Positions 11,603 to 51,149 of a stretch of DNA of 64,000 bases are shown piece by piece (positions within the stretch are counted from its first letter, which is position 1; the number at the start of each line of letters is the position of its first letter). Both the position numbers and the translations under genes were made by a program. The notes beneath the pieces were generated by a model. The model was not told the origin of the DNA. It did no database searches and saw nothing but the letters and a program-made list of their open reading frames with translations. Origin of the DNA: Betaproteobacteria bacterium RIFCSPLOWO2_12_FULL_68_20 (GTDB lineage Bacteria > Pseudomonadota > Gammaproteobacteria > Burkholderiales > SG8-39); NCBI GenBank assembly GCA_001770655.1, contig MERQ01000001.1, positions 32,739-96,738 on the forward strand, written 5' to 3'.

Positions 11603-12595
11603 TCAGTCCTCGAGGTAGTCGGCGCGCAACACCCAGGCACGGACCTCCGGGTCGGTCTCGAACTTCTCGCGATGGAAGCGCATTCCTTGGGCATGGCCCT
11701 CCGCCATGGTCCGCTCGAGCCTGGCGATGTGGCGGCCGGCCGTCGTGAAGGCGCCGGCGATCCGGAAAAGGGCGCGCCCGATATGCAGGGGGGCGCAGTC
11801 GGCTGCTGATGCCGGGGTGTCTCCGAGATTGGCCTGGCGCAGTCGCGCAAACGAATCGGAAATCCCCTGCAGGAAGGCGCGCCGGCGGAAATAGTCGAAC
11901 GTCATTCTCTGCAAAGGCACGAGGTGACGCACTGACGCGCCGGGGTGAAACAGGCAACGGGCGCCGCTCGCGACGACGAAGCGCCCAAGCTGCATCTCGC
12001 CGTCGCCGCGGAACTTGATGAGATCGTCGGGCATCGCGTCCGGGTGAAAGCCGCGCGCGGCCTCGAGGACGCTCCTGCGCACGGAAAGATTGCAGCCCCA
12101 GACGAGCGCGGGGTCGATATCGCGCGCCTCGCCTCGCCACGCCAGGACGCTGAGCGACGGGATCGCATGGCCATCGCCGTACGGCCTGCGCCAAAGCCGC
12201 AACAGCCAGGGCGGCGGGGTGTCGACGAACGCCGGAAGAATGTTGCCGCCGACCATGGCGACCGAGTCATCGCGTAACGCTTCCCGCAGGCTGGCGATCC
12301 AGCCCGGAGACACCTCGACGTCGTCGTCGATGAACGCCAGCAAATCGCCTTTCGCCTCGCGCATGCCGCGATGCCGGCCGCGATGCAGGCCTGGCCTCGC
12401 CTCGTACGCATAGTGCAGCCCGGGAAGCGCCGTGCGCGCGTCCTCGGCAACCCGGCGGGTCGCGTCGGTAGAACCGTTGTCCACCACGATCACCTCGTAG
12501 GGGCCCGAGCCGGCCTCCTGGCGCGCCAGAGAGGCGAGCGCCCCCGCCAGCGCCGCGGCGCGGTTTCTCGTCGGCACGATGACGCTCACCAGCAT
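11603..12595 (-). CDS. glycosyltransferase family 2
   Basis: Motifs VSVIVPTRNRAAAL, VVDNGSTDAT, AFIDDDVEV (DxD). Confidence 0.85.
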   Translation of the reverse strand: MLVSVIVPTRNRAAALAGALASLARQEAGSGPYEVIVVDNGSTDATRRVAEDARTALPGLHYAYEARPGLHRGRHRGMREAKGDLLAFIDDDVEVSPGWIASLREALRDDSVAMVGGNILPAFVDTPPPWLLRLWRRPYGDGHAIPSLSVLAWRGEARDIDPALVWGCNLSVRRSVLEAARGFHPDAMPDDLIKFRGDGEMQLGRFVVASGARCLFHPGASVRHLVPLQRMTFDYFRRRAFLQGISDSFARLRQANLGDTPASAADCAPLHIGRALFRIAGAFTTAGRHIARLERTMAEGHAQGMRFHREKFETDPEVRAWVLRADYLED

Positions 12596-13361: not shown

Positions 13362-14813
13362 TCATCGCGGATGCGTACCCCGTCGCACGAGCTCTGCCAG
13401 AAGCCGCAATTCATCGCGGCCGAAGCGTCGGACGAAGGCAAGCATGACGGTCAGGGACAGCACGCCGGCCACGACAACGTGCAACGCGATGGTCGCGGGC
13501 GTCCCCGTCAGGTCGACGGCCGCGAACAGCAGCATCGGGCTGCTTGCGAGCGCCACCCGGCCGACGAACGACAGGAGGGGAGCCAGCTGCAGCCCCAAAG
13601 CATGACGGGCGAGATACAGTTGAACGGCGACGCCCCAGAACACCACGGCGAAACGCGCCCAGATGAACTCCGCGAAGCCCGCCCGGATGGCCACCAGGTA
13701 GACCGGAAGGTACACCGCCATCGCGGCCAACATCGCGCCGGTTTCCAGCTGCGGCTTGCCTTGCGCGCGATAAGCCTCGCCGTTCGCGCCGACCAGCCAC
13801 GCGAGGCCGTGCGCGAGGCCGAGCGCCGCGATCACCTGGCCGATGCCAGTCCAGCGCTCGTCAAAGAGCAGCGCTTCTACAAGGCCCGCCAGCACCGCCA
13901 TCGCGAAGCTGCCGGGTATGGCCGCCAGCGCGATCACGCGTATCGCACGCGCCAAGGCCTCGCGCAGGCGAACTGGATTGTTCTGCAGGCCGGATAGATG
14001 GCTGTACAGGACCGGCAGCAAGGGCGAGAAAACCACTCCATAAGCGGCCAGTACTACCTGGCTTCCGGTACGGTAAATGCCGAGGTCGTGCGCCCCCAGG
14101 TAGTACGCGATCACCAGCGAGTCTGCCCAGAAGAATCCCCATCCGAGCAGCGCCGACGTCGAGGCCCATAGGCCGAAACGAACCAGCTCCCGCTGCTGGT
14201 CCAGCGCCGAGGGACGGCGCGGCCGCCATCGCACCGCGCGCCACGCCGCCGCCGCGCCGACGGCCTGCCCCGCAAGGCCGCCGACGACGAGCGCCCAATA
14301 GCCCAGTCCCGCCCACGCGAGCGGTAGCGCGATGAGTACCGGCAAGAGCCCTGTCGCGAGCTGAATCCAGAAGAGCTCCCTGAAGCGCATGTCCCGCTGC
14401 AGGAGCGCGCTGGGCACCGCCATCCAGGCGCCGAGCACCACGCTTGGCGACATGGCGCGCAGGACGCCCGCGACTCGGTCGTCCCGGAATACGCCCGCGG
14501 CAACTGCATCGGCGCCGACGAAGACGAGCAACGCTGTGGCCGCCGCGAGCACGAGATTGACCCAGAATGCGCAGGTTGCCACGGACTCGACATCGGTCCG
14601 CTCCCGCACGACCGCGCGGCTCAGCCCGGCGCCCCAGACGATCTGCGAGAAACTCACCACGATGGCGGCTGCCGCGACGACGCCGAAGTCCTCCGGCATG
14701 AGCATCTGAGCGAGCAACAGAAGCACGAGCGGCAGGCCACTCCGCGAAGCGATCTCGCCCGCGAGCGACCAGCGGAAAGCGCTGAAGAGCCGGCGGCCTG
14801 TAGGCTCTGCCAT
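13362..14813 (-). CDS. polysaccharide biosynthesis protein, Wzx-like MOP/PST flippase
   Basis: 483 aa starting MAEPTGRRLFSAFRWSLAGEI. Hydrophobic throughout, with about 12-14 helices. The start overlaps the upstream stop by 1 nt. Confidence 0.75.
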   Translation of the reverse strand: MAEPTGRRLFSAFRWSLAGEIASRSGLPLVLLLLAQMLMPEDFGVVAAAAIVVSFSQIVWGAGLSRAVVRERTDVESVATCAFWVNLVLAAATALLVFVGADAVAAGVFRDDRVAGVLRAMSPSVVLGAWMAVPSALLQRDMRFRELFWIQLATGLLPVLIALPLAWAGLGYWALVVGGLAGQAVGAAAAWRAVRWRPRRPSALDQQRELVRFGLWASTSALLGWGFFWADSLVIAYYLGAHDLGIYRTGSQVVLAAYGVVFSPLLPVLYSHLSGLQNNPVRLREALARAIRVIALAAIPGSFAMAVLAGLVEALLFDERWTGIGQVIAALGLAHGLAWLVGANGEAYRAQGKPQLETGAMLAAMAVYLPVYLVAIRAGFAEFIWARFAVVFWGVAVQLYLARHALGLQLAPLLSFVGRVALASSPMLLFAAVDLTGTPATIALHVVVAGVLSLTVMLAFVRRFGRDELRLLAELVRRGTHPR

Positions 14814-15757
14814 CACGAGGCGCGACTCGTTGAGGCGGCGAGATCGTATAGCTGCGCCAGGCGATGCGACAGCTCGCCGAGCGCTCCCGGGACGCACGAG
14901 CGCTCGAGCAGCGCGCGGCGCACGCCGCCGAGCCGTCCGAGCTCGACGGCCTCGGCTCGCAGCGCGGCCGCCAGGTCGGGCACGCCGAGCGACACGGCCC
15001 GCCGCACCAGCCATTGCAAATGCCGCCGCAGGCCGGCGCGTCCGTGGATGCGCGCGATGTCGGCGCCGTGCTTTCGCACGACTTGCGCGTAGCCGAGGAC
15101 ATCCCGGCGCGCGTCCGCGGAAATCGTGCCTGTTCCGCCCACCGAATAGCACAGCAGCGGCTCGCGCAAGTGCACGAAGCGGCAATGCTCGGCGAGCCGG
15201 ATCGCGGTGTCCCACTCGTGGTAGGCCGAGATGGCTTCATCGAGGAGGCCGATTCGCTCGAAGCTTTCGCGATGCGCCAGCATCGCCTGGAGCATCGGAC
15301 CCGGGCGCCGCAGAAGGCTCGCGTATGAGCGGCCGTGGGTATGGGGCAGCGCAAAGCGCTCGCGGGCGGCCTGCCGGGCATCGACTTTCAGGACGTCGCC
15401 ATGCACCACCAGGTCTTTCGCGAAGTCCTCCGCGCGCAGGACCGCGAGCTGCATGGCGAGCTTCCCCGGCAGCCATTCGTCGTCGCTGTCGTTGAAGGCG
15501 ATCCATTCGCCGCGCGCGGCCAGGATGCCAGTGTTGCGCGCGCCCTGCGCGCCCTTCGCGCGCGCGTTGGCGATCACGCGCACGCGCGGGTCGCCGCCCG
15601 CTCGCGCCGCCTCGGCGGTGCCGTCGGCCGAGCCGTCGTCGACGACGATCACCTCCAGCGGGTCGTACTGCTGGCGGAGCACGGAGCGCACCGCGGCGGG
15701 CACGGTCTGCGCGCGGTTGAAGGCCGGAACGACCACCGAGACGAGCGGCTGCTTCAT
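14813..15757 (-). CDS. glycosyltransferase family 2
   Basis: MKQPLVSVVVPAFNRAQTV, VVDDGSADGT, FNDSDDEW. GGGGAG lies upstream of the ATG. Confidence 0.85.
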   Translation of the reverse strand: MKQPLVSVVVPAFNRAQTVPAAVRSVLRQQYDPLEVIVVDDGSADGTAEAARAGGDPRVRVIANARAKGAQGARNTGILAARGEWIAFNDSDDEWLPGKLAMQLAVLRAEDFAKDLVVHGDVLKVDARQAARERFALPHTHGRSYASLLRRPGPMLQAMLAHRESFERIGLLDEAISAYHEWDTAIRLAEHCRFVHLREPLLCYSVGGTGTISADARRDVLGYAQVVRKHGADIARIHGRAGLRRHLQWLVRRAVSLGVPDLAAALRAEAVELGRLGGVRRALLERSCVPGALGELSHRLAQLYDLAASTSRAS

Positions 15758-27340: not shown

Positions 27341-27511
27341 TTTCGGTTTTCTCCGATCTCGTCATTTCCGCGCCTTTTGTCTTTGCGGAAATGACGAGAC
27401 CTTGGTGCCGTCGCATAGCGAAGGCGCTCGCAGAGAAGCGACCGCCCCAAGGTCTCGCGACTTCCGGAAAAGAAAAGGCCCGGAAGTCGCGAGATCGATG
27501 AAAGGCAAACC
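27341..27511 (-). repeat. 171-bp double-hairpin intergenic repeat, copy A (inverted relative to copies B and C)
   Basis: Two perfect 15-bp stems: TCTCGTCATTTCCGC/GCGGAAATGACGAGA (27357-27399) and TCTCGCGACTTCCGG/CCGGAAGTCGCGAGA (27453-27494). An 11-bp outer stem CGAGACCTTGG/CCAAGGTCTCG is also present. It fills the gap between two convergent stop codons. Confidence 0.9.
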
Positions 27512-28483: not shown

Positions 28484-28603
28484 GCGATGGCGAGTGTAAC
28501 AGCCTGAATCAGGGCCCCTTATCGGCAAATCAGAACATCGGCTTTGCGGTGCGCTGCGCGCCTGCCGACAATAACGCGCTGTTCTAACGATATTCGAAAT
28601 CGA

Positions 28604-29821
28604 ATGCCCGGCCTCGTTAAGCCCCACGGCGGCGGCCCGCTCAAGCAGCTGATGCTCGCGGGAGAGGCGCTGCGCGCAGAGCGCGCGCGCGCGAAGACCC
28701 TGCCGCAGGTGCGCGTCAGCTCGCGCGAGAAGGGCGACCTCATCATGCTCGGCATCGGCGGCTTCACGCCGCTCGACGGGTTCATGACCCGCGCCGACTG
28801 GGAGGGCGTGTGCGACGGCTGCCGCACGGCGGCGGGGCTGTTCTGGCCGATCCCGATCACGCTTTCCACCGACACCGGCACCGCGGCCGCCTTCAGGACC
28901 GGAGCCGACATCGCGCTGGTGGACGCCGAAGACGGCGAGACGCTCGCCACCATGACCGTCACCGAGAAGTACGCGATCAACAAGGCGCACGAATGCGCGA
29001 CCGTGTTCCGCACCACCGACGCGACGCATCCGGGCGTGCAGATGGTCATGGCGCAGGGCGAGGTGAACCTCGCGGGTTCGGTCAAGGTGCTCTCCGACGG
29101 CGGCTTCAAGGCGCGCTACGGCGCGCTGTTCATGACCCCCGCCGAGACGCGCGCCGAGTTCGAGCGCCTCGGCTGGTCGCGCGTCGCGGCGTTCCAGACG
29201 CGCAATCCCATGCACCGCTCGCATGAGTACCTCGCCAAAGTGGCGATCGAGACCTGCGACGGCGTGCTGGTGCACTCGCTGCTCGGGAACCTGAAGCCGG
29301 GCGACATTCCCGCCGAGGTGCGCACCAGGGCGATCTCGGTCCTGATCGAGAAATACTTCCTGGCCGCCACGGTGGTCCAGGCGGGCTATCCGCTCGACAT
29401 GCGCTACGCGGGGCCGCGCGAGGCGCTGCTGCACGCGCTGTTTCGCCAGAACTACGGCTGCTCGCACCAGCTCATCGGGCGCGACCACGCGGGGGTGGGC
29501 AGCTACTACGGGCCGTTCGACGCGCACCGGATCTTCGACGAGATCCCGCACGACGCGCTCGAGACGCGGCCGATGAAGATCGACTGGACCTTCTGGTGCT
29601 ACAGGTGCGGCGGAATGGCCTCCGGACGCACCTGCCCGCACGAGGACAAGGACCGGCTGCTCGTCTCGGGCACCAAGCTGCGCAAGTGGCTCTCCGAGGG
29701 AAGCCCGGTGCCGGCCGAATTCTCGCGGCCGGAGGTGCTCGAGATCCTGCGCGAGTACTACGCCGGGCTGGAAGCGCACGAAAAGGTCGAAGTGAAGCTC
29801 GCGGGCCATTCCGCGCGCTAG
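28604..29821 (+). CDS. sat: sulfate adenylyltransferase (ATP sulfurylase)
   Basis: Motifs [13 protein letters not shown] and GRDHAGVG. 405 aa from the ATG at 28604. Confidence 0.9.
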
Positions 29822-31039: not shown

Positions 31040-32890
31040 ATGGCCAGAAGAACCAGGTTCGTCGATTCGGACATCCTCATCGTAGGCGGCGGCTTCGGCG
31101 GCTGCGGCGCCGCCTACGAGTCGCGTTACTGGGGGCGGGATCTCAAGATCGTGCTGGTCGAGAAGGCCAATGTCGAGAGGAGCGGCGCCGTGGCGCAGGG
31201 ACTCTCGGCGATCAACTGCTACATGGGCATGCAGTGGGGCGAGAACCAGCCCGAAGACTTCGTGAAATACGCGCGCGGCGATCTCATGGGCCTCGTGCGG
31301 GAGGACCTCGTCTACGACATCGCCCGGCACGTGGACTCCACGGTGCACAAGTTCGAGGAGTGGGGCCTGCCGATCCTCAAGAACGCGAACGGCCGGTACA
31401 TGAGGGAAGGCAAGTGGCAGATCATGATCCACGGCGAGAGCTACAAGCCGCTCGCCGCCGAGGCGGCGAGGAAGTCCGCCACCGAGGTCTACAACCGGAT
31501 CATGGTGACGCACCTGCTGATGGACCAGAAGCGCCCCAACCGCATCGCGGGCGCCGTCGGCTTCAACGTGCGCAACGGCGATTTCTACGTCTTCAGGGCG
31601 AAGGCGGTGATCGTCGGCGCCGGCGGCGGCTCGCACATCTACCGGCCGAGGGCGGTCGGCGAAGGCATGGGAAGGACCTGGTATGCGCCGTGGAGCACGG
31701 CTTCGGCCTACGGTCTCATCATCCCGACCGGCGCCACGATGACGCAGATGGAGAACAAGATCGTTCTCACCCGCTTCAAGGACGGCTACGGTCCGGTGGG
31801 TGCCTGGTTCCTGCTCCTGAAGGCGGTGGCGACGAACGCCGCCGGGGAGTTCTACGAGAAGGACCGCTATCCCGAGATCAAGGAGCGCGTCGGGCACTAC
31901 GTGGACATCGTGCCGATGCCGACCTGCCTGCGCAATCACGCGATGCTGGAGGAGATCAAGGCCGGCAAGGGCCCGATCTACATGCATACGCAGAAGGTCC
32001 TCGACACCAGGGAGAAGGAGGAGATCGGCTGGGAGGATTTCCTCGACATGACGATCGGCCAGGCGGTCGTCTGGGCGGCGCAGAACATCGATCCCAAGGA
32101 AAAGCCCTCCGAGCTGATTACCTCCGAGCCCTACATCATGGGCTCTCACGCCACCTGTTCCGGTGCCTGGGCAAGCGGGCCGGAGGACTGCGCACCGGCC
32201 GAGTACCAGTGGGGCTACAACCGCATGACGACCGTCGAGGGCCTCTTCGGCGCCGGCGATACGATCGGCGGCTCCGCGCACAAATTCTCCGCCGGCTCCT
32301 TCACGGAAGGTCGGTTGGCTGCGAAAGCGGCCGTCCGATACGTCATGGATCGCAAAGAAGAGTCGCCCGAGGTCGACGACGACCACGTCGAGAGCCTCAA
32401 GCAGGCGGTATTCAAGCCGCTGGAAACCTACCGGGTCGGCAGGAACGAGATCGTCGCCGGGACCGTGGCGCCGGGCTACATCAACCCTCTCCAGGGCCTG
32501 CAGCGGCTCGAGAAGATCATGGACGAGTACGTGGGCGGCGTCGGCATGTTCTACGTCACGAGCGAGAACCTGCTCAACCGCGGCCTGGAGCATCTCGCCA
32601 TGCTGCAGGAGGATTTCGAGAAGATCGGCGCCGAGGACCTGCACCAGCTCCAGCGGGCCTGGGAGCTGCAGCACCGCATCCTGACCGGCGAGTCGGTGGC
32701 GCGGCACACGCTCTACAGGAAGGAAACCAGGTGGCCGGGCTACTACTATCGCGGCGACTATCCGAAGCTCGACGACAACGAGTGGCACTGCTTCACCGGA
32801 TCCGAATACGACCCCAGGTCACGCGAGTGGAAGATGTCGAAGCTTCCCGTTCACCGCATCGTCCCGGGCTTCGAGCTATTGCGAACCTGA
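31040..32890 (+). CDS. aprA: adenylylsulfate reductase alpha subunit
   Basis: FAD fold DILIVGGGFGGCGAA. 616 aa. C-terminal RKETRWPGYYYRGDYPKLDDNEWHCF. Confidence 0.9.
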   Translation: MARRTRFVDSDILIVGGGFGGCGAAYESRYWGRDLKIVLVEKANVERSGAVAQGLSAINCYMGMQWGENQPEDFVKYARGDLMGLVREDLVYDIARHVDSTVHKFEEWGLPILKNANGRYMREGKWQIMIHGESYKPLAAEAARKSATEVYNRIMVTHLLMDQKRPNRIAGAVGFNVRNGDFYVFRAKAVIVGAGGGSHIYRPRAVGEGMGRTWYAPWSTASAYGLIIPTGATMTQMENKIVLTRFKDGYGPVGAWFLLLKAVATNAAGEFYEKDRYPEIKERVGHYVDIVPMPTCLRNHAMLEEIKAGKGPIYMHTQKVLDTREKEEIGWEDFLDMTIGQAVVWAAQNIDPKEKPSELITSEPYIMGSHATCSGAWASGPEDCAPAEYQWGYNRMTTVEGLFGAGDTIGGSAHKFSAGSFTEGRLAAKAAVRYVMDRKEESPEVDDDHVESLKQAVFKPLETYRVGRNEIVAGTVAPGYINPLQGLQRLEKIMDEYVGGVGMFYVTSENLLNRGLEHLAMLQEDFEKIGAEDLHQLQRAWELQHRILTGESVARHTLYRKETRWPGYYYRGDYPKLDDNEWHCFTGSEYDPRSREWKMSKLPVHRIVPGFELLRT

Positions 32891-32911: not shown

Positions 32912-33427
32912 GTGAGAATCTGCATCGTCTCGGATAGCCACGACCGCGCCGATGCGCTCGGTCGCGCCGTGCGCGAAGCGGCCGCGCAGGGTGCTCAGGC
33001 GGTGATCCACTGCGGCGACCTCATCGGCACGCAGACGCTGCGCCCGGCAATGGACGCCGGGCTCCCGATCCACGTCATCCACGGCAACAACCTGGGCGAC
33101 CCCAACTCGCTTTCGCGATGGGCGCACGAGAGCGGCGGCCGGCTGCGCTACCACGGCGCCGACGCCCGCGTCGAGCTCGGCGGACGGCGTATCTTCGTGG
33201 TGCACTACCCGGAGTACGGCTACGGCATGGCCTGCACGGGGGACTGGGATCTCGTGTGCTGCGGGCACTCGCATCACGCGGCCGTCGAGCGCGTGGCGAA
33301 CGTCAAGGGCGGTGCCACCTGGCTCGTCAACCCCGGGACGGTCGCGGGCCTTGCGGCGCCCGCAACCTGGATGCTGGGCGATCTTGCGGCGATGCGCTTC
33401 GAGATCCGCGAGCTCGGCACAGCCTAG
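32912..33427 (+). CDS. YfcE/MJ0936-family metallophosphoesterase
   Basis: MRICIVSDSHDR, HCGDL, GNN, CCGHSHH. The GTG start lies 21 nt after the aprA stop. Confidence 0.75.
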   Translation: MRICIVSDSHDRADALGRAVREAAAQGAQAVIHCGDLIGTQTLRPAMDAGLPIHVIHGNNLGDPNSLSRWAHESGGRLRYHGADARVELGGRRIFVVHYPEYGYGMACTGDWDLVCCGHSHHAAVERVANVKGGATWLVNPGTVAGLAAPATWMLGDLAAMRFEIRELGTA

Positions 33428-33520
33428 AAGCAGCTGATCAAGGACTGACTCTGTCGTCGTCCCCGCGCAAGCGGGGAACCGTTCTCGAGAACCCCGCCCG
33501 GGAAATCGCGCGGGGTTTTT
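33428..33520 (+). repeat. left copy of a ~93-bp direct repeat (aprA-like gene tail + CRISPR-repeat-like hairpin + terminator)
   Basis: AAGCAGCTGATCAAGGACTGA... aligns with 34997-35090 with about 5 mismatches. It starts at the first base after the phosphoesterase TAG. Confidence 0.9.
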
Positions 33521-33525
33521 GTTTT
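33492..33525 (+). terminator. intrinsic terminator inside the left direct repeat
   Basis: GC-rich stem CCCCGCCCG/CGCGCGGGG with loop GGAAAT, followed by TTTTTGTTTT. Confidence 0.6.
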
Positions 33526-33663
33526 GCCGTCGCCGGGCGCTTCAAGCTACCGGAGGGGCGGTTCGCATTGTCGCCTGTCGCCGCAATGCCTAAGATCGCG
33601 GCATGGACCGTTTCCACCGCTACTACACGCTGAAGCTCGACGCGGGGGTCATTAAGCGCCGCG

Positions 33664-33903
33664 GTGCGGAGTGCGCCGCGCGCATTTTCCGAGCCTGAGA
33701 TCCTCGTGGGCAAGCCGGTGGTGAAGGGCACGCGACTGTCGGTGGATCTGATTCTCGACCGTCTCGGTGACGGGTGGACGGCAGATGATCTGTTCAAATC
33801 CTATCCGCGCCTGACGCCCGAGGCGCTGCAAGCGGTATTCGCGTTTGCCGCCGAGGTGTTGAAGGATGAGGACTACGTCGCTCCTGCCAAAGCGGCGGCA
33901 TGA
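33664..33903 (+). CDS. DUF433-family antitoxin-like protein
   Basis: EPEILVGKPVVKGTRLSVDLILDRLGDGWTADDLFKSYPRLTPEALQAVFAFAAE fits the DUF433 pattern (GKP.I.GTR...YP.LT.E.I.AA..YA). The GTG start is uncertain. Confidence 0.6.
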   Translation: MRSAPRAFSEPEILVGKPVVKGTRLSVDLILDRLGDGWTADDLFKSYPRLTPEALQAVFAFAAEVLKDEDYVAPAKAAA

Positions 33904-33968
33904 AGCTGCGGCCGCTCGCCAACGATGTTTTTCCACGCCTTAGCGCCAGTTCGACGGCCGTAGTTTGA
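33900..33968 (+). pseudogene. possible truncated remnant of the DUF433 partner toxin (DUF5615-like)
   Basis: ATGA-coupled 22-codon ORF MKLRPLANDVFPRLSASSTAVV. It only weakly resembles the MKLL.DENFP start of DUF5615 proteins. Confidence 0.25.
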
Positions 33969-34021
33969 GTTCGGCGCGTGCTACGATGGTTTTTTCAGGC
34001 ATGGCAAGCCGTGGAGGCATC

Positions 34022-34345
34022 ATGGATGCGATTTCGGTGGAACAGCTCATCAGGAGTCCGGGCAAGCTGATCGAGGATGCCGAGAACGGTCAGCTTGCGG
34101 TAATCACCAAGGCGGGCCGCCCGCTGTTTCTCGCCGTGCCTTTCGACGCGCGCCTGGCCGGGGAGGATGTGCACGTCGTCGTCGCGGTGCGTCTGTACGA
34201 GAGCGACGCCGTGAGCCTCGGCAGGGGCGCGAGAATCGCGGGGCTCTCGATCAGCGAATTCATCGACCGGCTCGGTGCGCTGCAGATTCCCGTCATTCGC
34301 TATTCCGTCGAGGAGCTCGAGCGGGAGCTCGCCGCGTTTGGCTGA
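34022..34345 (+). CDS. antitoxin-like protein: Phd/YefM-like N-terminus fused to a UPF0175 domain
   Basis: ISVEQLIRSPGKLIEDAENGQLAVITKAGRPLFLAVP is Phd-like. AVRLYESDAVSLGRGARIAGLSISEFIDRLGALQIPVIRYSVEELERELAAF is UPF0175-like. Confidence 0.6.
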   Translation: MDAISVEQLIRSPGKLIEDAENGQLAVITKAGRPLFLAVPFDARLAGEDVHVVVAVRLYESDAVSLGRGARIAGLSISEFIDRLGALQIPVIRYSVEELERELAAFG

Positions 34346-34667
34346 AATCGTCGTCGCGGATGCGGGGCCGCTGATCGCGTTCGGACTGAAACTTTTGCCG
34401 CCCGATGTGGAGCTGGGGGAAGGAGAGGCGGTTGCAATCGCCTTGGCCGCTGGTCGTGGGCACGGCGTCCTGATCGACGAGAAACTCGGCCGCGCGGTGG
34501 CGGAGGGGCTCAGTCTCAAAGTCATCGGAACCGTGGGCGTTCTTCTCATCGCACGCAAGCGCGATCTGATTGCGGCGGTGAAGCCGTTGCTGGAGGACCT
34601 CAAGGCATCCGGGCATCGGCTGTCCGAGGATTTGGTTGTAGAGGCCCTTCGCCGTGCCGGTGAGTAG
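34338..34667 (+). CDS. DUF3368/PIN-like toxin, apparently internally shortened
   Basis: The TTG start overlaps the antitoxin stop. EIVVADAGPLIAF, then GEGEAVAIALAAGRGHGVLIDEKLGRAVAEGLSLKVIGTVGVLLIARKRDLIAAVKPLLEDLKASGHRLSEDLVVEALRRAGE (DUF3368 pattern). At 109 aa it is shorter than I recall for this family. Confidence 0.55.
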   Translation: MAEIVVADAGPLIAFGLKLLPPDVELGEGEAVAIALAAGRGHGVLIDEKLGRAVAEGLSLKVIGTVGVLLIARKRDLIAAVKPLLEDLKASGHRLSEDLVVEALRRAGE

Positions 34668-34693
34668 TTGCTCTGCCAACTTCGTCGAGATTG

Positions 34694-34777
34694 ATGGCAA
34701 ATCTTCTTCCACCCCTCAAACCGATCCCGATTAAGGAACGGCTGTCGGTTCTCTACATCGAGAAGGGCCATCTGGAC
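34694..34777 (+). pseudogene. cas1: cas1 (type I-E) 5' fragment, codons 1-28 only
   Basis: MANLLPPLKPIPIKERLSVLYIEKGHLD compares with the recalled E. coli Cas1 start MTWLPLNPIPLKDRVSMIFLQYGQIDV. The frame then runs directly into a CRISPR repeat. Confidence 0.7.
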
Positions 34778-34778
34778 G

Positions 34779-34860
34779 CCCGCGCGCGCGGGGATGAACC
34801 GCGATCGAGATCGGCGATCTGCCGGCGTGGGAAGTGTTCCCCGCGCGCGGGGATGAACCT
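34779..34860 (+). CRISPR. CRISPR remnant: 5'-truncated repeat (23 nt), one 32-nt spacer, degenerate terminal repeat (27 nt); type I-E repeat class
   Basis: CCCGCGCGCGCGGGGATGAACCG (34779-34801), spacer CGATCGAGATCGGCGATCTGCCGGCGTGGGAA (34802-33), then GTGTTCCCCGCGCGCGGGGATGAACCT (34834-60). The GTGTTCCCCGCG...CGGGGATGAACCG form is the I-E consensus type. Confidence 0.65.
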
Positions 34861-34861
34861 C

Positions 34862-35017
34862 CGCGAGGAAACCCGCTACCCGGGCTTCTACTACCGGATG
34901 GACAAGAACTACATCGACGACGAGAACTGGAAGTGCTTCGTCAACTCGACCTACGACCGCAACACGCACCAGTGGGCGCTGAAGAAGGTGCCGTACAAGC
35001 AGCTGATCAAGGACTGA
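34862..35017 (+). pseudogene. aprA: 3' fragment (about 52 codons) of a second, divergent aprA
   Basis: REETRYPGFYYRMDKNYIDDENWKCFVNSTYDRNTHQWALKKVPYKQLIKD aligns with the intact AprA tail RKETRWPGYYYRGDYPKLDDNEWHCFTGSEYDPRSREWKMSKLPVHRIV. Confidence 0.75.
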
Positions 35018-35090
35018 CCCCGTCGTCGTCCCCGCGCAAGCGGGGAACCGTTCTCGAGAGCCCCGCCCCGGAAATCGCGCGGGGTGTTTT
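34997..35090 (+). repeat. right copy of the ~93-bp direct repeat
   Basis: Aligns with 33428-33520. It includes hairpin GTCGTCCCCGCGCAAGCGGGGAACCG (35025-35050) and a GC stem plus T-run (35061-35090). Confidence 0.9.
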
Positions 35091-35137
35091 CTGGCTACAA
35101 TCCATCGACGCGTTTGTTGTCTCCTGGACGCAGCGAC

Positions 35138-37336
35138 GTGAGGATCGGGAAACCGGAGAATCTGGCAGGCGAGCTGTGGGGCGGGCTGGCAGCGATGCTG
35201 GTCGCGCTGCCCTCGGCGATCGCCTTCGGGGTGACGATCTTCGCGCCGCTCGGCGGCCAGTACGCGGCGCAGGGCGCGGTGGCGGGAATTCTCGGCGTGG
35301 CCGCGCTCGGCATCGTTGCTGCGTCGCTCGGCGGTACCGCGCGCCTGATCACCGCGCCGTGCGCGCCCGCGGTGGCGGTGCTGGTGGCGCTGGCGATCGA
35401 GCAGACGCAGCGCGGCGTCGCGCCGGAATCGATTCTTCTCACGCTCACTCTGGTCGCGCTGCTGTGCGGCCTGCTCCAGTTCGTGTTCGGGGCGATCGGG
35501 CTCGGGCGGCTGATCAAATACATGCCGTATCCGGTCGTGAGCGGCTACCTCAGCGGCGTCGGCTTGATCATCATCGTGAGCCAGATTCCGAGGCTGCTGG
35601 GCGTTCCGAACGACACGCGCCTTCTCGATGCGCTCACCATGCCCGCGCTCTGGCAGTGGCAGGGTGTCGCCGTCGGCGTGGCGACCATCGCCGTGATGGC
35701 GCTGGCGCCGCGGCTCACCAGGGCGGTCCCCGCGGCGATTCTTGCGCTTTTCGCCGGGGTCCTCGCCTATCTTGCTCTCGGCCTGGGCGATCGCCAGCTC
35801 TACCAGGTGGCCGGGAACCCGCTGCTGGTCGGCCCGCTCGGCGGCCCGGGCGGCGGTTTCCTCGACGCGATCGCCTCGCGCTGGAGCGCGATCGGTGCGC
35901 TGAGCCTCGGCGAGCTGCGCTACGTGGTGATACCGGCCCTGACGCTCGCGGTGCTGCTTTCGATCGACACGCTGAAGACCTGCGTGGTGCTCGACGCGCT
36001 CACGCGCTCGCGTCACGACCCCAACCGCGAGCTGATCGGCCAGGGGCTCGCCAATCTCGCCTCGGGGGCGGTCGGCGGCGTTCCGGGCGCCGGAACGATG
36101 GGTGCGACGCTGGTCAACGTCGCGAGCGGGGCGCGCACGCGGCTGGCGGGCGCGCTCGAGGGAATATTCGCGCTGGTCGCGTTCCTCGCGCTCGGCAGCC
36201 TGATCGCCTGGGTGCCGATCGCCGCGCTCGCCGGAATCCTGATCGTGATCGGGGTGCGCATGTTCGACCGCCACAGCCTGCAGCTGCTGCGCTCGCGCTC
36301 GACGGTGCTCGATTTCTTCGTCATTCTGACGGTGGTGGCGGTCGCGCAGTTCAACTTGGTCGCCGCCTCCGGTGTCGGCATCGCGCTCGCAATCGTGCTG
36401 TTCATCCGCGAGCAGGTCGGCGGCTCGGTGGTGCGCCGCAAGGCCTACGGCAATCAGGTGTTCTCCAAGCGGGTGCGGCTGCCCGAGGAGATGGCGATCC
36501 TGGAAAAGCACGGCGGGCGCTGCGCGATTTTCGAGCTGCAGGGAAGCCTGTTTTTCGGCACCGCGGACCAGCTCTTCACCGCGCTCGAGCCCGAGCTGAA
36601 GACGCGCGAATACGTGATCCTCGACATGCGCCGCGTGCAGTCGGTCGACGTGACCGCGGCGCACATGCTGGAGCAGATCGGCGACATGCTCTCCGAGCGC
36701 AAGGCGCTGCTCATCTTCAGCCAGCTGCCGCGGGAGGTGGCGAGCGGCAGGGACATGCGCGACTACTTCGAGCAGGTGGGGCTGACGCGCGCCGAGCAAA
36801 AGGGCAGGACTTTCGGCGAGCTCGACGAGGCGCTCGAGTGGGTCGAGGACCGCATCCTCGAGCAGGAGCGCCTCGAGCGCGCGCTGGAAAAGCCCCTCGA
36901 GCTGCGCGAGCTGGAGGTCTTCAAGGTGCGCAAGGAGGAGACGCTGGCGGCGCTCGAGGCGTGCATGGACAAGCGCTCCTACAAGGCCGGCGAGAGAATC
37001 TTCGCGCGCGGCGAAAGCGGCGACGAGATGTTCCTGATCCGGCGCGGCCAGGTGCGCATCGTGCTGCCGATCGGCGAGGGGCAGACGCACCACCTTGCGA
37101 GCTTCGGGCGCGGCGACTTTTTCGGCGAGATGTCGTTCCTCGATCGCGACGCGCGCTCGGCCGACGCCGTGGCCTTGACTGACATCGACGTCTACGCCTT
37201 GTCGCGCGGCCGCTTCGACAGGATCGCCGAGGAGCACAAGAAACTGGCGCTCGGGCTGCTCGAGGGAATCGCGCGCGTGCTGGCGATCCGCCTGCGGTTC
37301 ACCGACACCGAGCTGCGCGCACTGGAGCGCGCGTGA
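35138..37336 (+). CDS. SulP-family anion permease with C-terminal STAS and cyclic-nucleotide-binding domains
   Basis: About 11 TM helices (LWGGLAAMLVALPSAIAFG...), a STAS-like segment (CAIFELQGSLFFGTADQL) and a cNMP-binding motif (FGEMSFLDRDARSADAVA). A GTG start at 35138 is preferred because 35084 lies inside the upstream terminator. Confidence 0.8.
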   Translation: MRIGKPENLAGELWGGLAAMLVALPSAIAFGVTIFAPLGGQYAAQGAVAGILGVAALGIVAASLGGTARLITAPCAPAVAVLVALAIEQTQRGVAPESILLTLTLVALLCGLLQFVFGAIGLGRLIKYMPYPVVSGYLSGVGLIIIVSQIPRLLGVPNDTRLLDALTMPALWQWQGVAVGVATIAVMALAPRLTRAVPAAILALFAGVLAYLALGLGDRQLYQVAGNPLLVGPLGGPGGGFLDAIASRWSAIGALSLGELRYVVIPALTLAVLLSIDTLKTCVVLDALTRSRHDPNRELIGQGLANLASGAVGGVPGAGTMGATLVNVASGARTRLAGALEGIFALVAFLALGSLIAWVPIAALAGILIVIGVRMFDRHSLQLLRSRSTVLDFFVILTVVAVAQFNLVAASGVGIALAIVLFIREQVGGSVVRRKAYGNQVFSKRVRLPEEMAILEKHGGRCAIFELQGSLFFGTADQLFTALEPELKTREYVILDMRRVQSVDVTAAHMLEQIGDMLSERKALLIFSQLPREVASGRDMRDYFEQVGLTRAEQKGRTFGELDEALEWVEDRILEQERLERALEKPLELRELEVFKVRKEETLAALEACMDKRSYKAGERIFARGESGDEMFLIRRGQVRIVLPIGEGQTHHLASFGRGDFFGEMSFLDRDARSADAVALTDIDVYALSRGRFDRIAEEHKKLALGLLEGIARVLAIRLRFTDTELRALERA

Positions 37337-40293: not shown

Positions 40294-40465
40294 GGTTCTT
40301 TCGCCTTTCATCGATCTCGCGACTTCCGGGCCTTTTCTTTTCCGGAAGTCGCGAGACATCGGGGCGGTCGCATTTCTGCGGACGCCTTCGCTATGCCGAG
40401 GCACCAATGTCTCGTCATTTCCGCAAAAACAAAAGGCGCGGAAATGACGAGATCGTGGAAACCCC
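40294..40465 (+). repeat. 171-bp double-hairpin intergenic repeat, copy B
   Basis: Roughly 9 in 10 positions are identical to the reverse complement of copy A by eye, with the same two 15-bp stems. It lies between convergent stops at 40282 and 40492. Confidence 0.9.
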
Positions 40466-40491
40466 AAAAAACCCAACGACACCGAAAACCG

Positions 40492-50581: not shown

Positions 50582-50753
50582 GGTTTTCGCTTTTCTACGA
50601 TCTCGCGATTTCCCGCGCCTCTTGCCTTTGCGGGAAATCGCGAGACATTGGTGCGATCGCGTTTGGCAAACGCCTCAGCTATGCGACGGCCTCAATGTCT
50701 CGTCATTTCCGCAAAAGAAAAGACGCGGAAATGACGAGATCGGATAAAAGCGC
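50582..50753 (+). repeat. 171-bp double-hairpin intergenic repeat, copy C (divergent, with compensatory stem changes)
   Basis: TCTCGCGATTTCCCGC/GCGGGAAATCGCGAGA and TCTCGTCATTTCCGC/GCGGAAATGACGAGA. It starts at the base after the lptG stop and ends 6 nt before the convergent RDD-gene stop. Confidence 0.9.
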
Positions 50754-50759
50754 AATAAC

Positions 50760-51149
50760 CTACACCATCACCAGCCGCGTGCCGGCAAGCCGATCGTGCA
50801 GGAACATCCGCTCGCGATCGAACAAGGCCCACACGAGCGAGATCCCTGTGGGCACGAGGATCGCCGCGAGCGCGAGGCGCACGAGCGCCGTGCGCGGCGT
50901 CGCGCCCTGCAGCCGGATGCGCCAGGCCTTCATGGCGAGCGTCTGCCCGCCGCGCAGCCAGCACCACAGGAAATAGGCGGCAAACGCCGCGGCGATGAAC
51001 AGCTGCAGCGCGTGGCGAATCCACCCGAGCGTGGCGTCGCGCCCGCCGCTCGCGAAAAAGAATACCCAGGCGGCGAAGAAGGCGACCGCGGCGAGCAGTA
51101 GCGCCTCGTAGAGCATGCTTGCAAGGCGCCGCGCCAGGCCGGGCGTCAC
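50760..51149 (-). CDS. RDD family membrane protein
   Basis: RRLASMLYEALLLAAVAFFAAWVFFF ... GQTLAMKAWRIRL. The GTG start overlaps the upstream stop. Confidence 0.65.
   Translation of the reverse strand: MTPGLARRLASMLYEALLLAAVAFFAAWVFFFASGGRDATLGWIRHALQLFIAAAFAAYFLWCWLRGGQTLAMKAWRIRLQGATPRTALVRLALAAILVPTGISLVWALFDRERMFLHDRLAGTRLVMV

Follow-up and report, generated by a model that had tools for sequence, protein, structure and literature searches.

The window analyzed here, a 64,000-nt (64 kb) stretch of contig MERQ01000001.1 from Betaproteobacteria bacterium RIFCSPLOWO2_12_FULL_68_20, holds the beginning of a type I-E cas1 gene joined to the remains of a CRISPR array. On the plus strand, an ATG at 34694 opens MANLLPPLKPIPIKERLSVLYIEKGHLD, the cas1 head, which comprises codons 1-28 and the first base of codon 29 (34694-34778). 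The sequence runs directly into positions 7-29 of a CRISPR repeat (34779-34801, CCCGCGCGCGCGGGGATGAACCG), a unique 32-nt spacer (34802-34833), and positions 1-28 of a second repeat (34834-34859, GTGTTCCCCGCGCGCGGGGATGAACC), which has lost 2 nt in its (GC)n palindrome and is fused to aprA', the 3' end of a second, dead aprA (34860-35017, plus strand, 52 codons and a stop codon). The open reading frame (ORF) that starts at the cas1 ATG spans 107 codons and passes through the repeats, its last 52 residues being the AprA C-terminus. An earlier note, made from the sequence alone, had located the ATG, both repeats and the 32-nt segment correctly and had read them as a fossil type I-E locus left by a single deletion. 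The fossil reading held up, since collinearity with an intact locus ends at cas1 nucleotide 85, but the fossil (33633-34859) is larger and more eroded than the earlier note described.

We asked to which family the cas1 head belongs. When the 28-aa peptide alone was scanned against the NCBIfam hidden Markov models, one of 18,950 models matched, cas1_ECOLI (TIGR03638, positions 2-22), with a weak E value of 0.2; it is therefore the genomic relatives and the collinearity that identify the peptide. A protein search with the peptide padded with X, which returns only proteins of about the length of the query, yielded eight short proteins with 81-96% identity, two of which carry the Cas1 name from their source. 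An alignment of the Cas1 parts of these short-protein matches was scanned over one genome per species, and 270 genomic stretches (cas1 genes) were found to encode this N-terminus at 74-94% identity; 80 loci were retained. By its first 28 residues only, the window sequence thus falls into the Cas1e family, on the strength of the TIGR03638 N-terminus and the 270 genomic Cas1e genes. Consistent with this assignment, tblastn of the intact Cas1e from the closest intact relative, locus L039, gave a sole match in the window at 34694-34780 (26 of 29 residues identical, E 8e-12), while the other seven type I-E proteins of L039 gave none. The cas1 head is accordingly the only cas piece in the 64 kb, in agreement with the earlier note. 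Since cas3, cse1, cse2, cas7, cas5, cas6e, a full cas1, cas2 and a leader were not found in the window, the locus is a remnant and not a working type I-E member. The 26 nt that precede the cas1 ATG were considered as a possible cas6e tail, which was ruled out: they are the native spacer between the PIN gene and cas1 and are collinear with L039.

L039, which lies on contig SCTY01000028.1 of a betaproteobacterial metagenome-assembled genome, supplies the undeleted state that the earlier note had proposed to look for in relatives. Its genes, as assigned with Pfam, run cas3-cse1-cse2-cas7-cas5-cas6e-UPF0175-DUF3368-cas1-cas2 and are followed by an array of 130 repeats. The window is collinear with this locus over 33949-34778 at 82-93% DNA identity, window 33949-34384 matching L039 9100-9535 at 92.7% and window 34395-34778 matching L039 9708-10085 at 81.8%. 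The divergence shifts along the block, the synonymous distance (dS) being 0.16 in the antitoxin gene, 0.47 in the 3' part of the PIN gene and 0.72 in the cas1 head. Whatever the locus aligned, the cas1 match ends at 34776-34778, with similarity to the repeat setting in at 34779. In a base-by-base comparison, the junction is CATCTGGACG/CCCGCGCG in the window and CATCTGGACG/TGCTCGAC in the intact genes; repeat position 7 thus follows directly on cas1 nucleotide 85, and no microhomology is evident. The undeleted state was not found in the contigs of close AprA relatives that were examined.

The repeats themselves place the array remnant in the same clade. The repeat inferred for the window, GTGTTCCCCGCGCGCGCGGGGATGAACCG, occurs exactly in locus L032, and 40 related loci carry the same repeat family, of the form GTGTTCCCCGC-NNNN-GCGGGGATGAACCG, in arrays that begin ~1.3 kb downstream of the cas1 start, after cas1-cas2. 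The order of cas1 followed by an array on the same strand, to which the earlier note had drawn attention, is thus that of the clade, and the hallmarks of such an array (29-nt type I-E repeats and ~32-nt spacers on the cas1 strand, downstream of cas1) survive in the window as two partial repeats and one spacer. The 12-mer CGGGGATGAACC has exact copies in the 64 kb only in these two repeats (one-mismatch expectation, 0.37). No further array, repeat copy or second copy of the spacer was found in the window, where the stem motif recurs only within a duplicated hairpin of a 96-nt direct repeat. When the spacer was searched against phages, plasmids, IMG/VR (with every sixth base free) and the window, nothing exceeded chance, the partial matches being 11-12 nt long; no protospacer was found.

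Two claims about the second repeat stood only in part. The stretch 34834-34860 reads GTGTTCCCCGCGCGCGGGGATGAACCT, that is, the repeat followed by a T at 34860, and the earlier note had taken it for a degenerate terminal repeat with a 2-nt loss and a changed last base. The 2-nt loss is real. Aligned with the intact aprA of L096 and of L102, aprA' begins at 34860, in a TTC codon, so the T at this position is the first aprA base rather than a mutated repeat base. Likewise, two repeats are present as described, but their status as penultimate and trailer-end repeats is not demonstrable, the second being fused to aprA' at repeat position 28.

A reading in which the two repeat units belong to a dispersed palindromic family, with a chance peptide match to Cas1, could draw on the GC-richness of the genome and its many hairpins of the CCCCGCG type, on a similar hairpin at 33461 and 35030 (CCCCGCGCAAGCGGGG), and on Rfam, which, used as a repeat classifier, matched no CRISPR family. 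However, the window has no additional copies of the repeat, intact type I-E loci are collinear with the DNA to either side of the junction, arrays of the clade use the identical repeat, and the cas1 head has 270 relatives. We regard this reading as already refuted and its probability as negligible.

Upstream of cas1, the fossil continues through a series of further scraps, all on the plus strand. At its left end lies a 53-nt scrap of a DUF4011 helicase gene with breakpoints on both sides (33633-33685), which is 96% identical in DNA and identical in 18 of 18 amino acids to residues 1199-1216 of a helicase that sits just upstream of another fossil, L012. It is followed by a DUF433 (antitoxin-type) gene without its first ~8 codons (33686-33903; Pfam PF04255, E 1.7e-18), which shows 90-91% DNA identity to those of L011, L012 and L014 from their codon 9 on. 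The ~16-codon 5' scrap of a DUF5615 PIN-like toxin gene (33900-33948) can be aligned with the beginning of its L011 counterpart (ATGAAGCTGCGGC..CTCGCCAACGA), after which the similarity ends. Next come a non-coding stretch that belongs upstream of a UPF0175-DUF3368 cassette (33949-34021, within the 92.7% match to L039), an intact gene for a 107-aa UPF0175 antitoxin (34022-34345; Pfam PF03683, E 1.4e-13), and a DUF3368 PIN toxin gene (34338-34667; Pfam PF11848). The antitoxin is identical to that of L039 at 100 of 107 positions; seven residues differ, the frame is intact and dN/dS is 0.19. Compared with L039 and L035, the toxin gene carries an in-frame 162-nt deletion between 34386 and 34387, with GAC microhomology, that removes residues 17-70 (54 codons) and with them the near-invariant E40. 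Neither toxin-antitoxin (TA) pair is therefore complete, the DUF433 domain being kept, though ~8 codons short, next to only ~16 codons of its partner, and the UPF0175 antitoxin being intact next to a toxin without residues 17-70. Promoter and terminator consensus scans of 33300-35300 found nothing.

These pieces bear on the single deletion, from cas1 to the penultimate repeat, that the earlier note had proposed. The cas1::repeat junction is compatible with one deletion, but it was not the sole event: the locus holds at least seven breakpoints, both repeat junctions included, and thus at least six beyond the cas1::repeat junction. Its history is accordingly one of multi-step erosion.

The right end of the fossil shows that the locus does not merely lie beside sulfur-metabolism genes, as had been noted, but is joined to the 3' end of a dead one. 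aprA' covers only positions 565-616 of the 616 of TIGR02061 (E 1.4e-17), far from a full-length AprA of ~600-620 aa, whereas the working aprA of the window lies at 31040-32890 and scores 967.7 bits against an NCBIfam cut-off of 641.75 (protein OGA71162.1). The two are of different types: aprA' belongs to the sat-aprB-aprA type of a lineage without aprM, and the working genes of the window are arranged as sat-aprM-aprB-aprA with a metallophosphoesterase gene, a module that is also present in other genomic contexts. The fusion to a dead aprA suggests that this lineage exchanged its adenylylsulfate (APS) reductase genes for others. The 56-aa AprA C-terminal proteins of other genomes were considered as similar fossils and ruled out, the L096 case being a split gene call of a full aprA.

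Taken together, these data make it very probable that 33633-34859 is an eroded, non-functional type I-E remnant, derived from a clade that carries TA cassettes between cas6e and cas1. The repeat-spacer-repeat unit and the 107-codon chimeric ORF of cas1 head, repeats and aprA tail probably have no function of their own. Since metagenome assemblies are often broken or confused by CRISPR arrays, we considered whether an assembly chimera could have brought cas1, array and aprA reads together. The 107-aa ORF, however, is present unchanged and with the same flanks on contigs of up to 135 kb in 39 collection blocks produced with several assemblers and different pipelines; the fossil is therefore not an assembly artefact and is fixed in that population. 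A chimera, which we likewise count as refuted, has next to no probability left.

It is also improbable that the unit is a working orphan mini-array that is transcribed from a TA promoter and whose RNA is cut by Cas6e and incorporated into a Cascade with genes elsewhere in the genome, yielding a CRISPR RNA or a regulatory RNA resembling one. The stem-loop is kept in both repeats, the upstream repeat retains the 8-nt 5' handle ATGAACCG, same-strand genes lie upstream, and related bacteria from similar habitats commonly carry type I-E systems whose repeats are nearly identical; moreover, regulatory mini-arrays are known in type I-E loci. Those mini-arrays and standalone repeats, however, are intergenic in intact cas loci and have partial targets at cas promoters (10.1101/2023.03.03.530964). 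The window unit resembles them in its repeat-spacer-repeat layout with imperfect repeats, but it lies in a wreck with no cas gene in 64 kb; in place of a promoter-complementary spacer near a protospacer-adjacent motif there are only the 11-12-nt matches at chance level, and the spacer had no target in any of the sequence sets searched (phages, plasmids, IMG/VR, the window). In addition, the palindrome of its downstream repeat is shortened, all the neighboring pieces are scraps, and other fossils retain zero or one repeat, which no function would need.

Several points nonetheless weigh against the remnant reading as it stands. The island is invariant in 14 contigs, which fits a recent clonal population and is no evidence of neutral decay. 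The cas search covered 64 kb, and a type I-E system elsewhere in the genome may use the mini-array in trans. That former addiction is the reason for the persistence of the TA genes is something we infer from sequence. Finally, the fossil lies between two copies of an aprA tail, a position that more than one history could have produced.

These two copies form a 96-nt direct repeat on the plus strand. Copy 1 (33425-33520), which begins at the metallophosphoesterase stop codon, consists of the last seven aprA' codons (KQLIKD*) and two hairpins; copy 2 (34994-35089; family D2), 1.5 kb downstream, consists of the aprA' tail, the hairpins and a T-run and lies upstream of a SulP transporter gene. The copies differ at 6 of 96 positions (94% identity). 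What they enclose begins with an unassigned 112-nt scrap (33521-33632), which matched nothing in the compared loci or the rest of the window and separates copy 1 from the helicase scrap, and ends with the aprA' fragment. The first hairpin of the repeat, GTCGTCCCCGCGCAAGCGGGGAACCG (33455-33480 and 35024-35049), resembles a type I-E repeat shortened by 3 nt, and its downstream copy lies 164 nt past the last true repeat on the same strand. This hairpin was found in this population only, and its fold is no better than that of shuffled sequence; it could be a third degenerate CRISPR repeat or a plain GC-rich terminator hairpin.

The duplicated aprA tail may reflect either decay in place or the arrival of a piece that had already decayed, since both are compatible with it. 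Under the second alternative, type I-E immunity never worked at this site, and the piece from helicase scrap to repeats came by recombination, with or after the sat-aprMBA-metallophosphoesterase module. The flanking direct repeat with its 6 differences would fit such an arrival, as would the GC content of the island (60-65%, compared with ~70% in the flanks) and the mosaic nature of the block, which combines a helicase scrap and DUF433 gene of 91-96% identity to L012 with a UPF0175-DUF3368 cassette of the L039 type. Extra cas6e-tail scraps on cassettes in L039, L012 and L041 also suggest movement between loci, and the aprMBA-phosphoesterase module occurs in other contexts. On the other hand, no integrase or transposase gene lies nearby, an in-place deletion explains the fusion of the last repeat to the aprA remnant equally easily, and a search for an empty-site or donor haplotype, or an intact ancestral aprA with this tail, returned three contigs that showed none of these. 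We therefore hold translocation to be a serious but minority possibility.

Whether the remnant eroded in place or elsewhere, its TA genes have counterparts in the intact loci of the clade. The distance between cas6e and cas1 could be placed in 58 of the 80 genome loci, and it was at least 300 nt in ~33 and below 250 nt in ~25 of these 58; six apparent gaps were mis-placements of cas6e, which are the source of the Cas7 and Cas5 matches in the scan of gap ORFs. Plus-strand ORFs in the gaps matched DUF433 (12), DUF5615 (11), ParE (8), UPF0175 (7) and DUF3368 (7) and, more rarely, MNT-type nucleotidyltransferases (4), Unstab_antitox (3), Phd (2), and HepT, MazE, Fic and PrlF (1 each). TA genes thus make up most of the inserts at the cas6e-cas1 junction of this Cas1 clade. 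Both pair types of the window, DUF433/DUF5615 and UPF0175/DUF3368, end within ~30 nt of the cas1 start in 21-22 loci. The two genes upstream of the cas1 head are thus no bystanders but the TA cassette of this kind of type I-E locus. A general link between TA genes and cas loci was already known, as were RNA-based CreTA guards (PMC9458426, PMC8501985, PMC10097628), while our literature searches found no description of the cas6e-cas1 junction as a TA site.

Cassettes of the UPF0175-DUF3368 type are preceded by an extra scrap of a cas6e 3' end in three loci (L039 9060-9114, L012 6207-6235 and L041 14498-14560). They lie between cas6e and cas1 in L039, which also has its own complete cas6e, and in L012, and at the far end of the array in L041. 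In this last, otherwise intact type I-E locus, a ~950-nt cassette together with its cas6e-tail scrap occupies exactly a spacer position (14480-15466), with a complete repeat on one side and a degenerate terminal repeat on the other. Cassettes appear to have been swapped between type I-E loci by recombination in flanking cas sequences.

The window is not alone in its kind of wreckage, as five further truncated cas1 heads directly follow TA pairs in metagenomes, three of them fused to repeats. L011 holds a cas6e tail, DUF433, DUF5615, 31 codons of cas1 and repeat positions 1-21, and L014, at the same chromosomal site, holds 36 codons of cas1 and no repeat. L012/L013 consists of the helicase, a cas6e tail, DUF433, UPF0175, DUF3368, 47 codons of cas1, a partial repeat, a 32-nt spacer and a repeat; L015 of UPF0175, an internally deleted DUF3368, 51 codons of cas1 and one full repeat; and L106 of DUF3368 and 54 codons of cas1. 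Full-length toxin genes are kept in four of these five. The cas1 breakpoints are different in each fossil, indicating separate events. Because the search favors proteins of the query's length, ascertainment may account for the clustering of breakpoints at codons 28-54, and the data do not establish a cas1 breakpoint hot spot; this, too, must be set against the remnant reading. Three loci of group P0006 (L107-L109) were rejected as fossils, their cas1 gene call being split in two, probably by a frameshift.

Junctions between repeats and non-array sequence in the fossils lie within 1 nt of a repeat border in 4-5 of 7-8 cases, compared with ~10% expected per junction if they fell evenly; the count, which is post hoc and small, comprises L015, L011, L041 (left, possibly right) and the right end of the window array. 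Such an excess would be expected from aberrant strand transfer by Cas1-Cas2 or from breakage at integrase nicks. The idea that a self-derived spacer recombined with its cas1 protospacer to give the cas1::repeat fusions was rejected, because by eye no AAG lies 32-33 nt upstream in L011 and L015, the two fusions that start at repeat position 1. In L034, a small and working-looking type I-E array of a Rifle betaproteobacterium, one spacer is joined to repeat positions 14-29 (11790-11830); deletions that break inside repeats thus also occur where cas genes remain. Just upstream of the fossil in L011, positions 1-600 hold a second CRISPR array with a different repeat, seen as periodic translated motifs, and the fossils may sit in CRISPR or defense islands.

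We propose that the locus was lost through several deletion steps that its TA cassettes would have constrained. While a type II toxin is active, cells cannot survive without its antitoxin, so deletions that removed a useless or harmful CRISPR-Cas system would have been tolerated only if they spared the cassette. The cassettes may thus have survived because cells that lost an antitoxin died while the toxin was active, leaving deletions able only to trim the flanks. The expected residue would be a cassette with short stumps of its neighbors (a cas6e tail and a cas1 head) and an array collapsed to one or two repeats. The toxins would have decayed afterwards, both of them in the window and one in L015, while orphan antitoxin genes lingered, and the addiction modules would in this way have outlived the immune system. 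The wider proposal joins three parts, namely that the cas6e-cas1 junction is a preferred TA landing site in a large type I-E clade, that the cassettes are addiction modules which hinder loss of the locus and survive as TA-anchored fossils, and that the erasing rearrangements involve Cas1-Cas2 or nicks at repeat borders; taken jointly, this is tentative and has the odds against it.

Several known systems share features with the fossil. It resembles type I-E systems of the E. coli K-12 type (TIGR03638, 29-nt repeats, 32-nt spacers) in its Cas1e N-terminus, its spacer length, the shared strand of cas1 and array, the CCCCGC..GCGGGG stem and the A(T/U)GAACCG handle. It differs from them in that 28 cas1 codons and two damaged repeats are what the window retains, effectors, cas2 and leader being absent, and in that its parent clade carries TA genes between cas6e and cas1; we know of no TA genes at this place in the E. 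coli locus. E. coli strains that have lost cas genes exist. Orphan and degenerate CRISPR loci and isolated cas remnants have been surveyed (PMC7145637), and CRISPR2 of E. faecalis has been described (PMC5491264). The window locus is a further example of this known phenomenon of degenerate CRISPR-Cas loci, with cas genes lost, a small array kept and no assignable function, but its array stump runs into a cas1 head on one side and the remnant of a foreign gene on the other, and it is attached to the TA genes of the locus.

The proposed role of the cassettes recalls CreTA, RNA TA pairs that safeguard CRISPR-Cas with Cascade as co-antitoxin (PMC9458426, PMC8501985, PMC10097628), in that an addiction module sits among cas genes and is thought to penalize loss of the locus. 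Unlike CreTA, the window modules are protein type II pairs independent of Cascade, which would safeguard nothing but themselves and are able to persist once the cas genes are gone. TA cassettes are known, for instance from Vibrio superintegrons, to stabilize islands and arrays of genes, protecting them from deletion. As in these, TA pairs here are interspersed in accessory DNA, where deletions that remove them would be counter-selected, but the host structure is a cas operon and the stabilizing role of the cassettes is putative.

The remnant implies that a Rifle-type sulfur-oxidizing betaproteobacterium, or the donor of its DNA, once had type I-E immunity and lost it. The comparative pattern of a TA hot spot, TA-anchored fossils and junctions at repeat borders is a more interesting lead than the locus alone, since more than half of the type I-E loci of this clade have cas6e-cas1 inserts and the same cassettes mark at least six independent wrecks. 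If the cassettes are addiction modules, this pattern bears on why costly CRISPR-Cas systems persist and how they are lost, and the fossils would then offer a sequence signature by which past losses could be counted in genomes now without CRISPR-Cas.

Two further observations concern the surroundings of the fossil. A metagenome contig, L004, carries the same apr-island-SulP block with other genes (DUF6866, TusA) upstream of sat. In a comparison with window 28500-29500, 98 of 107 differences fall within the 5' half of sat, a pattern that reflects either a recombination boundary or an assembly chimera. Separately, a palindromic element of ~170 nt is present in three intergenic copies in the window (27341-27509, 40300-40468 and 50584-50760), which are 75-90% alike and have the look of a miniature inverted-repeat transposable element (MITE) or a repetitive extragenic palindrome (REP).

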